Positions 1-1,707 of a stretch of DNA of 6,104 nucleotides are shown here, piece after piece (within the stretch, counting starts at the first letter, position 1; every line of letters starts with the position of its first letter). The notes beneath the pieces were generated by a model that saw only the letters and a program-made list of their open reading frames with translations, was not told where the DNA came from and searched no databases. The stretch lies in IMG/VR virus record IMGVR_UViG_2579778721_000001, positions 1 to 6,104 of that record; one strand, given 5' to 3'. Both the position numbers and the translations under genes were made by a program. Source of the DNA: a virus. Lineage: Duplodnaviria > Heunggongvirae > Uroviricota > Caudoviricetes.

Positions 1-351
1 TCACCAGAAAATTGATAACAGAGGGCGTTGCAGCGGGGTTGTCACTTAAGCGTATGGTCAACCTGACAACCCGGTGTCCTCAACGGGGGAAGGAATAACC
101 CCGCCATACTTACCGCCGCGCCATTTCGCGGATTGCCACAACCGGAAGCGCACGGTCGACGAAAATTTAACGACAGGCTATCTATGAACCAGCTACCTCG
201 CCGTGCGCTTTCGCGTTATGGTCTGACTTTTCAGGGAAATATCCTTTCAGTAAACTGTCAGTGCCGGATGCTCACCCGTGTCCGGCGCACGCACTCCACC
301 TCACCCGTGGAGAACTCCTTAATTACCAACCTTAGCTTCGTTGGTTATCTA

Positions 352-570
352 TTAACGCGGGTATGTAATCATTCTGGCAATGCTTAATGCCGCTGCTTTT
401 TCCAGCCTGGTGATATCCTGCTCCAGAGCGGACAGATTTTCAGCCTGCTTAGCTCTGGCTTCATTAGCCCATTTCAGATCCTGCGCTGCATTAATTTTCT
501 GGCGCATCCACTCATAAAGTTCATCATCGGTATAGTCTGGCGCGATGATGACGGGTTCTCGTTTCTGCAT
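352..570 (-). CDS. Hypothetical small protein (72 aa), distal gene of the leftward early operon; YdfC-like by size and position only
   Basis: ORF in supplied track. ATG at 570-568 with a GAGGA Shine-Dalgarno (complement of 577-581) about 6 nt upstream. Tandem in-frame stops TAA/TAG. Same strand and tight spacing with the two upstream small ORFs. Confidence 0.6.
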   Translation of the reverse strand: MQKREPVIIAPDYTDDELYEWMRQKINAAQDLKWANEARAKQAENLSALEQDITRLEKAAALSIARMITYPR

Positions 571-599
571 ACTGATTCCTCGCGGTGCTGTTTCGCTTA

Positions 600-710
600 T
601 CAGCCGTTAGATTTTCCCGAACTGGAAAGCGCCTGTTTAAATTCACTGAAGCTGAGAGCTTCTTCGCCTTCGGCAAGACCATCGAAGTATTCTTCGTAAG
701 CCTTTTCCAT
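600..710 (-). CDS. Small protein, 36 aa (MEKAYEEYFDGLAEGEEALSFSEFKQALSSSGKSNG); middle gene of leftward operon
   Basis: Manual translation of the minus strand; absent from the ORF track, presumably below its length cutoff. ATG at 710-708, stop TGA (complement of 600-602). Start lies 19 nt after the stop of the 730..885 ORF and its stop 29 nt before the next ATG. No clear SD, so it rests mainly on operon context and acidic, non-random composition. Confidence 0.4.
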   Translation of the reverse strand: MEKAYEEYFDGLAEGEEALSFSEFKQALSSSGKSNG

Positions 711-729
711 GATTGTGTCGAAATCCATA

Positions 730-885
730 TCACTCACCTGAGTTTCTTTCCAGCCAGCGACGGGCACCATTTTCGGTTTTAAACGTTTTGCTTTTGGTAT
801 ACGTCATCGCGGTGAATGTGCCGTCCTGGTTGGGAAACACGCCGTACACCAGAGATTCGTTGTTGCCAAGCTCGATAGTATCCAT
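730..885 (-). CDS. Small protein, 51 aa (MDTIELGNNESLVYGVFPNQDGTFTAMTYTKSKTFKTENGARRWLERNSGE); first gene after the pL-like promoter; possibly DUF1391 (YdfA/YdaF-type)
   Basis: Manual translation; absent from the ORF track. ATG at 885-883 preceded by GAGG (complement of 891-894) with a 5-nt spacer. Stop TGA (complement of 730-732). Size and position match the first small gene of Rac/Qin-type leftward operons; family assignment is from memory, not a search. Confidence 0.55.
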   Translation of the reverse strand: MDTIELGNNESLVYGVFPNQDGTFTAMTYTKSKTFKTENGARRWLERNSGE

Positions 886-954
886 GCTGACCTCATTTCC
901 CCTTAACGCCGGGTGGCGGAACTAAAACCTACAGCGCCGTGCTGTTCTTGATAG

Positions 955-977
955 AAATATTAGTAACGCGGATATTT
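955..977. promoter_or_regulatory. Putative operator (OL-type) palindrome AAATAT-N11-ATATTT overlapping the pL -10
   Basis: Inverted repeat AAATAT (955-960) / ATATTT (972-977). Contains the 9-mer AAATATTAG that recurs at 1044-1052 and, inverted, at 1671-1679 in the pR region. Confidence 0.4.
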
Positions 978-985
978 TAAGTCAA
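957..985 (-). promoter_or_regulatory. pL-like sigma70 promoter for the leftward operon
   Basis: On the minus strand: -35 TTGACT (complement of 980-985), 17-bp spacer, -10 TAATAT (complement of 957-962). About 65 nt upstream of the ATG at 885. The -10 sits inside the operator-like motif CTAATATTT. Confidence 0.45.
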
Positions 986-1042
986 CAGTATGGCGTATGA
1001 TATTTTTGATTTGGTAACTATGTAAATGTTTTTTCAAGGGAA

Positions 1043-1056
1043 AAATATTAGTTATA
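1043..1056. promoter_or_regulatory. Second copy of the operator-like 9-mer AAATATTAG (possible OL2 or secondary promoter)
   Basis: AAATATTAGT at 1044-1053 matches 955-964 at 10 of 10 positions (11 of 13 over the extended site). No convincing -35 at 17 bp, so more likely a binding site than a promoter. Confidence 0.3.
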
Positions 1057-1082
1057 CAGCTGATTTGCAGAAGTTATGGCAC

Positions 1083-1112
1083 AAAAAAACCGACTAAGAC
1101 GTCGGTTTTTTT
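1083..1112. terminator. Bidirectional Rho-independent terminator between the repressor gene and the leftward operon
   Basis: A-run (1083-1089), stem CCGAC (1090-1094), loop TAAGAC, stem GTCGG (1101-1105), T-run (1106-1112). The hairpin is followed by a U-run on either strand. Sits 27 nt past the repressor stop. Confidence 0.7.
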
Positions 1113-1138
1113 GTTGTGGATGGGGTAGTGAGCGGTGG

Positions 1139-1600
1139 CTACTGGTTACGTTTCTTTAGTGCCAGCATGTTCTCGAAGGCTTCCTCGTAGAGCTTGTTTA
1201 GTCCACGTAGCTGGTTAAGGAGTTTGGCTTTTTCTGACGCAGGTAGAATCTCGAAGAGGTTAAGTAACTCTGCCTGTTCTTCATTGACCAGCCTCCATCC
1301 TTTGCCTGAAAAGTTATCATCATAAGTATCTGATGATCTTACATAATTCATTAAGTCTTTAAGGTCTTCTCGAATGTCCTCTGGTTTTACCTTTAACAGA
1401 GCCGCAAATTTTAGCGCAGCGTCGGTATTTACCGGTATCTTGCCGTTCAGATACTGGCTAACGGTGCCTTGAGATTCGAATCCCAACAACTCAGCCGCCA
1501 GCTCTTGAGTCAGCTTCAGCTCTTTTTTTCTTGCATTCCATGCGGCTTTTAAATTCTTGCTCGCTTCTGGAGTTGCAATCACTTCGCGTGTTTTTTTCAT
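1139..1600 (-). CDS. Prophage repressor, HTH XRE/cI-type N-terminal domain, 153 aa, no S24 peptidase domain (DicA/RacR-type)
   Basis: ORF in track. The HTH segment QELAAELLGFESQGTVSQYLNGKIPVNTDAALKFAALLKV matches the lambda cI helix-turn-helix pattern ([39 protein letters not shown]). Divergent from a Cro-like gene. At 153 aa it is too short for a LexA-like C-terminal domain. No SD upstream of the ATG, consistent with a leaderless mRNA. Confidence 0.85.
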   Translation of the reverse strand: MKKTREVIATPEASKNLKAAWNARKKELKLTQELAAELLGFESQGTVSQYLNGKIPVNTDAALKFAALLKVKPEDIREDLKDLMNYVRSSDTYDDNFSGKGWRLVNEEQAELLNLFEILPASEKAKLLNQLRGLNKLYEEAFENMLALKKRNQ

Positions 1601-1606
1601 ACATAG

Positions 1607-1634
1607 AGTTTATTTGTTTTACCAATATTATCAA
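1607..1634 (-). promoter_or_regulatory. Candidate pRM-like promoter producing a leaderless repressor mRNA
   Basis: On the minus strand: -35 TTGATA (complement of 1629-1634), 16-bp spacer, -10 TAAACT (complement of 1607-1612), ending 6 nt before the ATG at 1600. Weak hexamers, as expected for an activated maintenance promoter. Speculative. Confidence 0.3.
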
Positions 1635-1648
1635 AGATAGTCTGGCTA

Positions 1649-1677
1649 TTGATCTTTAAAATTAGCGGGGCTAATAT
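1649..1677 (+). promoter_or_regulatory. pR-like sigma70 promoter for the rightward early operon
   Basis: -35 TTGATC (1649-1654), 17-bp spacer, -10 TAATAT (1672-1677). About 30 nt upstream of the cro-like ATG at 1708. Overlapped by the palindrome ATTAGC-GGG-GCTAAT (1661-1675). Confidence 0.5.
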
Positions 1678-1679
1678 TT
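1658..1679. promoter_or_regulatory. Putative OR operator palindrome (AAAATTAGCGGGGCTAATATTT)
   Basis: Inverted repeat ATTAGC / GCTAAT around a GGG centre. The right half CTAATATTT is the reverse complement of the AAATATTAG motif in the pL region and overlaps the pR -10. Confidence 0.45.
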
Positions 1680-1707
1680 GCTCGAGGCATAACGTAGAAG
1701 GTTGGCT

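Follow-up and report, generated by a model that had tools for sequence, protein, structure and literature searches.

DicF, described as early as the 1980s, is a well-known small RNA of prophages and an inhibitor of cell division. In the Qin prophage of K-12 the annotation runs dicC, dicA, ydfA, ydfB, ydfC, dicF (an ncRNA of 53 nt), dicB and ydfD. There, dicF is without its own promoter and the RNA is excised from a polycistronic ydfABC-dicF(-dicB) transcript (PMC5069750; bioRxiv 10.1101/2023.04.14.536235). The 5' end of the 53-nt form is made by RNase E, its 3' end is a Rho-independent terminator, and a downstream RNase III cut gives a 72-nt form (PMC5069750), while an upstream RNase III cut yields a 190-nt species that accumulates upon RNase E inactivation (bioRxiv 10.1101/2023.04.14.536235). 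The 53-nt species was found to be RNase E-dependent and the 190-nt species RNase III-dependent, primer extension gave no internal promoter, and reference is made to an older report that places a promoter upstream of dicB (all bioRxiv 10.1101/2023.04.14.536235). DicF base-pairs with xylR mRNA through its 5' end (PMC5069750). Its 3' region pairs with the ribosome-binding site of ftsZ, Hfq being required, and the published targets are ftsZ, xylR and pykA. O157:H7 prophages carry multiple DicF copies, and dicF occurs in several prophage contexts (PMC5069750). In the E. coli genomes listed, RefSeq/PGAP leaves the DicF stretch without any annotated feature, and it appears that dicF routinely goes unannotated outside K-12.

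Here we describe the left end of a 6,104-nt stretch of viral DNA (hereafter the window, i.e., the whole stretch that was analysed), whose boundary, in the reading that we favor with a probability of about 0.93, cuts through a dicF gene, window bases 10 to 1 on the minus strand being the first 10 nt of DicF.

The left edge and the operon leading to it

Window positions 1-12 read tcaccagaaaat on the plus strand and ATTTTCTGGTGA on the minus strand, along which the sequence leaves the window. The sequence-only reading had given these 12 bases exactly so and had taken them for the possible 5' end of DicF, which it gave as beginning UUUCUGGUGACG, a start that both the K-12 dicF sequence and the consensus of Rfam RF00039 bear out. 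Of these bases, 10 to 1 alone are part of the mature RNA, 12 and 11 (A and U) lie upstream of its 5' end, and the remaining ca. 43 nt of DicF together with the terminator fall to the left of the edge. The single-stranded 5' segment of DicF, which starts UUUCUGGUGAC, is present as far as the 10 available nucleotides reach. The 10-mer TTTCTGGTGA has a single exact copy on both strands of the window, at 1-10 (-), and the next-best copy, at 2578-2587, is the sole one with one mismatch; simple arithmetic puts the expectation for an exact 10-mer at ~0.012 copies in 2 x 6104 positions. No Rfam DicF match was obtained in the window alone (E <= 10) because just 9-10 nt of the RNA are inside it.

The comparison with K-12 fixes the register of these few bases. 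Window 1-923 aligns with the dicBF operon of K-12 Qin in one piece at 97.4% identity (2892-1970 of the K-12 locus, L012), and the alignment terminates inside dicF at the left edge of the window. Annotated K-12 dicF occupies 2883-2935 of that locus and its +1 (2883) aligns to window base 10. Window 10..1 is identical to K-12 dicF nt 1-10 and, going by the alignment of a close relative (L002), to positions 1-9 of the Rfam model. The 20 nt upstream of the DicF start are identical in the window and K-12.

Upstream of this start, and on the same strand, are ydfA, ydfB and ydfC (Table 1), with dicF following ca. 340 nt past the ydfC stop, i.e., the composition of the dicBF operon. The sequence-only reading had proposed the same succession, ydfA-ydfB-ydfC and then DicF as in Qin, and it holds, given near-identical minus-strand genes and a +1 at base 10; its estimate of about 350 nt between the stop of the 72-aa gene and the DicF start comes to a measured 341 nt (340 nt in K-12). 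As neither YdfB nor YdfC matched any Pfam or NCBIfam model, their identity rests on the direct comparison with K-12 and on RefSeq names. Homology to K-12 ends at window position 923, 38 nt upstream of ydfA.

Table 1 Features at the left end of the window (arms of the duplex in 5' to 3' order of the minus strand)
Feature	Position	Strand	Basis
DicF sRNA, first 10 nt, UUUCUGGUGA	1..10	-	K-12 alignment, Rfam register, Tritos annotation
Putative RNase E site, AUCAAU↓UUUCUGG	9..13, cut between 11 and 10	-	K-12 literature, identical sequence
Untranslated spacer between ydfC and dicF, 341 nt	11..351	-	ORF ends; K-12 340 nt
23-bp duplex, probable RNase III substrate	136..221 (arms 221..196, 161..136)	-	Fold and conservation
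ydfC, 72 aa	352..570	-	71/72 identical to K-12 YdfC; YdfC label in relatives
ydfB, 42 aa, internal ATG of a 56-aa ORF	600..728	-	40/42 identical to K-12 YdfB
ydfA, 51 aa, DUF1391	730..885	-	PF07151, 96.4 bits; 50/51 identical to K-12 YdfA
Promoter-like hexamers, putative promoter of the ydfABC-dicF operon (dicBp counterpart)	957..1026	-	Hexamer match
Perfect 14-bp inverted repeat with A7/T7 flanks	1081..1114		Repeat finding
153-aa HTH repressor in the position of DicA	1139..1600	-	PF01381 HTH_3, 38.6 bits

Continuation of dicF in related prophages

As the window itself holds 10 nt of DicF, the sequence beyond its edge was read in 22 related loci. DicF is absent from none of them, and in 20 of the 22 it is canonical or near-canonical and in the exact register, i.e., it scores 63-77 bits with Rfam RF00039 (gathering score 48) or differs from the K-12 53-mer by 0-3 mismatches; in the other two the hairpin has diverged or decayed. 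Eleven loci were scanned with RF00039, and nine of these gave 63.1-76.7 bits in a register coinciding with the window edge (two stayed below threshold). The locus of E. coli ABU 83972, 99.4-99.7% identical to the window, scores 76.7 bits, and that of phage Tritos, 97.1% identical over window 1-930, scores 72.5 bits, model positions 1-9 falling on window 9..1; both read on as ...GGTGA / CGTTTGGCGGTATCAGTTTTACTCCGTGACTGCTCTGCCGCC(C/G)TTTTT. Tritos moreover carries the annotation 'DicF antisense sRNA', one end of which is the base equivalent to window 10. The sequence-only reading had suggested extending the sequence leftward to look for a continued DicF match with an intrinsic terminator, and for a small cell-division inhibitor gene further on; in the relatives that are 99.4-99.7% identical the extension reads CGTTTGGCGG... 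and ends in a terminator hairpin and U-tract, and the gene encountered downstream in relatives is dicB, then ydfD. ABU 83972 has a frameshifted ydfC, which is intact in the window.

A GC-rich terminator hairpin (GGCGG...CCGCC) with a U-tract is present in 21 of the 22 loci and decayed in one (L006). Wherever gene calls or annotation exist, in 13 relatives (L001, L002, L012 and L013-L022), dicB (PF05358) and ydfD (DUF1482) lie downstream of dicF, e.g., L002 with DicB (129 bits) to the left of DicF, and in the nearest relatives exonuclease VIII comes after these two genes. Ten contigs encode an identical YdfC, and every one of them has DicB and DUF1482 downstream; their DicF shows 0-1 mismatch to the K-12 53-mer in nine cases and three substitutions, one of them at position 10, in the remaining one (L018). 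In eight of these ten loci DicF starts 340-341 nt past the ydfC stop, and in two with an insertion in the spacer it starts 902 nt (L016) and roughly 940 nt (L018) past it. In each of the relatives closest over the adjoining 330-930 nt (L002, L015, L017, L019 and L022; 98.5-99.5% identity), DicF matches the K-12 one exactly.

No record identical to the window was found, and the best full-length matches (99.8%) carry an insertion of ~557 bp in the ydfC-dicF spacer. This insertion, present in several close relatives, lies just after ydfC (L002 3332-3887, also in L016 and L018) and maps to window 313-331, where the two alignment pieces overlap by 19 bp. Its open reading frames (106 aa on the operon strand, 86 aa on the opposite one) matched no Pfam family.

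Among complete E. coli records, 4,093 hold at least 80% of window 1-150 and 4,121 hold at least 80% of a 300-nt query that straddles the edge and includes the entire DicF; some 80% of complete E. coli genomes contain DicF, and many of them have more than one copy. In species-representative genomes a scan for exact 100-mers found none, and the exact 40-mer of window 1-40 was recovered from nine loci/genomes (E. coli, E. ruysiae, E. albertii, S. flexneri and two MAG contigs that were probably mis-binned), in seven of which DicF is above the gathering score and in the exact register. In E. albertii the first 20 nt of DicF are kept, while the hairpin, followed by U5, is rewritten yet paired and falls below the Rfam gathering score; in S. 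flexneri SFBU1023 (L006) the stem is degenerate and the U-tract broken. The two MAG contigs, binned as Veillonella parvula (JAGZPX010000007.1, L009) and Collinsella sp. (JAIIUG010000151.1, L010), contain this prophage segment of Escherichia, DicF included in full (72.5-72.6 bits), and their assignment to these taxa most likely reflects faulty binning. A few hundred nucleotides downstream of DicF, S. flexneri SFBU1023 and E. coli ECMA0423 carry a module unlike dicB-ydfD, with the genes for the isrK and C4 antisense RNAs (59.6 and 76.7 bits with Rfam; L006 963-1151, L007 2162-2350).

Spacer, processing and alternative readings

The minus strand of window 1-1080 would thus represent the promoter-proximal part of a lambdoid early-left ('dicBF') operon, in the order promoter, ydfA, ydfB, ydfC, a 341-nt untranslated spacer and DicF. 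On the basis of K-12 experiments, we infer that its transcript is processed in two steps. By homology to Qin, RNase III would cut the spacer duplex (~136-221) to leave an intermediate of ~190 nt, and RNase E would then cut between window 11 and 10 to release the mature 53-nt DicF, the 3' end of which would be its own Rho-independent terminator just outside the window. The mature RNA would bind Hfq and repress translation through base pairing, its 5' region, including the 10 nt seen in the window, with xylR and its 3' region with ftsZ, thereby inhibiting cell division. Since pairing with xylR involves the 5' end of the RNA, the 10 nt at the window edge would belong to a functional seed.

The sequence-only reading had described the spacer as structured, which is the case locally and much less so over its whole length. 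The fold of the entire spacer is modest (z = -1.77; 5 of 100 shuffles fold as well), and within it is a strong, conserved duplex of 23 bp with a mean pair probability of 0.97 in the predicted fold. Across five distinct relatives, three of them ~81% identical in this stretch, the duplex is paired in 98% of cells; 20 of the 23 pairs are invariant, the two changes seen are one-sided (U-G to C-G and C-G to U-G), and the sequence of the loop between the arms is largely rewritten. No compensatory changes were found in these five relatives, the near-invariance leaving a covariation test without power, so that the conservation is consistent with an RNase III substrate and is not a proof by covariation. 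Taking the published sizes, the RNase III position would be 190 - 53 = 137 nt upstream of the DicF +1 (bioRxiv 10.1101/2023.04.14.536235), and a cut near window 143-147, a position that the duplex spans, would be the probable origin of the 5' end of a 190-nt DicF precursor.

The putative RNase E site is predicted to be paired in the truncated fold; in the predicted fold of the 190-nt intermediate, taken from the nearest relative, it lies in a hairpin loop (z = -2.27), and the upstream GGCGCGGCGG pairs with the 3' arm of DicF. The site itself presumably conforms to the RN↓WUU preference of RNase E. The 137-nt leader of the 190-nt product (~147..11, minus strand), all of it inside the window, is nearly invariant in the relatives examined, even where the sequence just upstream falls to ~81% identity. 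It is conceivable, though rather doubtful, that this leader is a conserved, structured control of DicF maturation or activity and not an inert spacer; it could for example pair with the terminator arm and seed of DicF until RNase E frees the 53-mer. A predicted 9-bp hairpin within it (GGGUUGUCA/UGACAACCC, window 72-64/44-36 on the minus strand, pair probability 0.97), at window 36-72 and ca. 25 nt upstream of the DicF 5' end, gives no sign of being under selection: the two substitutions seen in relatives (G to A in the 5' arm and U to C in the 3' arm) are uncompensated.

With only 10 nt of the RNA visible and no Rfam DicF match inside the window, one might regard the resemblance of 10-12 nt as a product of chance, with no sRNA start at this place. 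However, these 10 nt are the end of a 923-nt alignment that runs into annotated K-12 dicF, all relatives examined run on into DicF or a DicF variant, and the expectation for an exact 10-mer in the whole window is about 0.012; the K-12 alignment and the continuation in relatives effectively refute a chance resemblance, and its probability is negligible. A different question is whether the edge marks a true dicF start whose copy has diverged or decayed, with an intact seed and an altered hairpin or U-tract, which would imply an sRNA of changed stability, or none. Such copies exist, as the rewritten hairpin of E. albertii and the degenerate stem and broken U-tract of S. flexneri SFBU1023 show, both of which share the first 40 nt of the window, and as the three substitutions in L018 indicate; yet 20 of the 22 loci are canonical or near-canonical and the five closest relatives are all identical to K-12, and we regard a decayed copy here as improbable. 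From these relatives we infer that an intact DicF lies in the flank of this genome to the left of the edge, and the doubt that remains (ca. 6-7%) concerns whether this copy is intact beyond the edge.

It could also be argued that DicF has a promoter of its own in the spacer and is transcribed from there directly, not processed from the ydfABC transcript, a notion in line with the older report of a promoter upstream of dicB (cited in bioRxiv 10.1101/2023.04.14.536235). Against it, no sigma-70-like hexamer pair is present on the minus strand of window 11-351, and in K-12 the 53-nt form needs RNase E, the 190-nt form needs RNase III and primer extension shows no internal promoter. The lack of a sigma-70-like site between ydfC and base 10 fits processing and not a separate promoter, making an own promoter very unlikely. 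We retain a dicF gene cut by the window boundary, within an operon transcribed from upstream of ydfA, as the best explanation, and the DicF interpretation of the sequence-only reading is supported by synteny, the unique 10-mer, the K-12 alignment and the register in relatives.

The immunity module and comparison with known systems

Two promoter-like hexamer pairs on the minus strand, TTTACA-18-TATCAT (10/12) at 1026..997 and TTGACT-17-TAATAT (9/12) at 985..957, are located between the 1081-1114 hairpin and ydfA and are candidates for the operon promoter. The 1081-1114 repeat looks like a bidirectional terminator hairpin between the repressor gene and the early-left operon; a simple terminator scan did not pick it up, and the weak Rfam matches (STnc370, IS128, AgrB, RNAI and others) all fall on it, below their gathering scores. 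Owing to the end of K-12 homology at 923, the promoter/operator and the repressor differ from the K-12 ones. Control of the operon by DicA itself, acting on its promoter, does not apply here, as the repressor reaches 35.1 bits against a cut-off of 101 for NF007257, and by its sequence it appears only distantly related to DicA. Beyond it are divergent plus-strand genes for a YdaS-like Cro and YdaT, and then replication genes, and the region is the immunity and early region of a lambdoid prophage. Judged by sequence, the operon body is of the Qin type and the immunity module (window 924-1700) is different.

A search for operators by repeat finding returned AAATATTAGY as the sole suggestive word, present three times in the window against 0.25 expected (one of 200 shuffles reaches three), at 955-964 and 1043-1052 (+) and 1670-1679 (-). 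The hexamers of the putative early-left promoter have a AAATATTAGT word on either side, at 955 and 1043, and the copy at 1670-1679 is inside a near-palindrome, AAATTAGCGGGGCTAATATTT (1657-1679), between the repressor and Cro-like genes. This hints that the words are candidate operator half-sites and that the local repressor might control the operon as DicA does in Qin. With a repressor other than DicA, the induction signals of this dicF copy may differ from those of K-12.

The element is an already known one, DicF in its standard operon, and it matches the published description throughout. Its significance is small beyond correct annotation, i.e., flagging a real and commonly unannotated gene, and the case illustrates that the gene of a small RNA may be split by the edge of a window and that synteny plus a 10-nt match sufficed for the correct call. 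The sole local twist is that the dicF operon adjoins a non-DicA immunity module, which is ordinary lambdoid mosaicism.

The closest described counterpart is DicF of K-12 Qin (b1574; RF00039), with which the window shares the first 10 nt, the upstream 20 nt, the ydfA-ydfB-ydfC genes, a spacer of nearly equal length and the same duplex at the RNase III position, and the relatives of the window carry the K-12-identical 53-mer followed by dicB-ydfD. Where Qin has DicC, the window has a YdaS-like Cro and YdaT, its 153-aa HTH repressor is not DicA, and the prophage appears more complete, with replication genes on the right and exonuclease VIII on the left in relatives. Escherichia phage Tritos (OV696610) shows a like order of repressor, ydfABC-like genes, DicF, dicB, ydfD and exonuclease VIII; it differs, however, in its CI/Cro pair and in the base directly preceding the U-tract (G in place of C). 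More generally, DicF is released endonucleolytically from a longer mRNA, with a terminator hairpin as its Hfq-binding 3' end and a single-stranded 5' seed, and in contrast to sRNAs at mRNA 3' ends it resides in an intergenic untranslated stretch of an operon, between coding genes, and is matured by a two-step pathway, RNase III and then RNase E.
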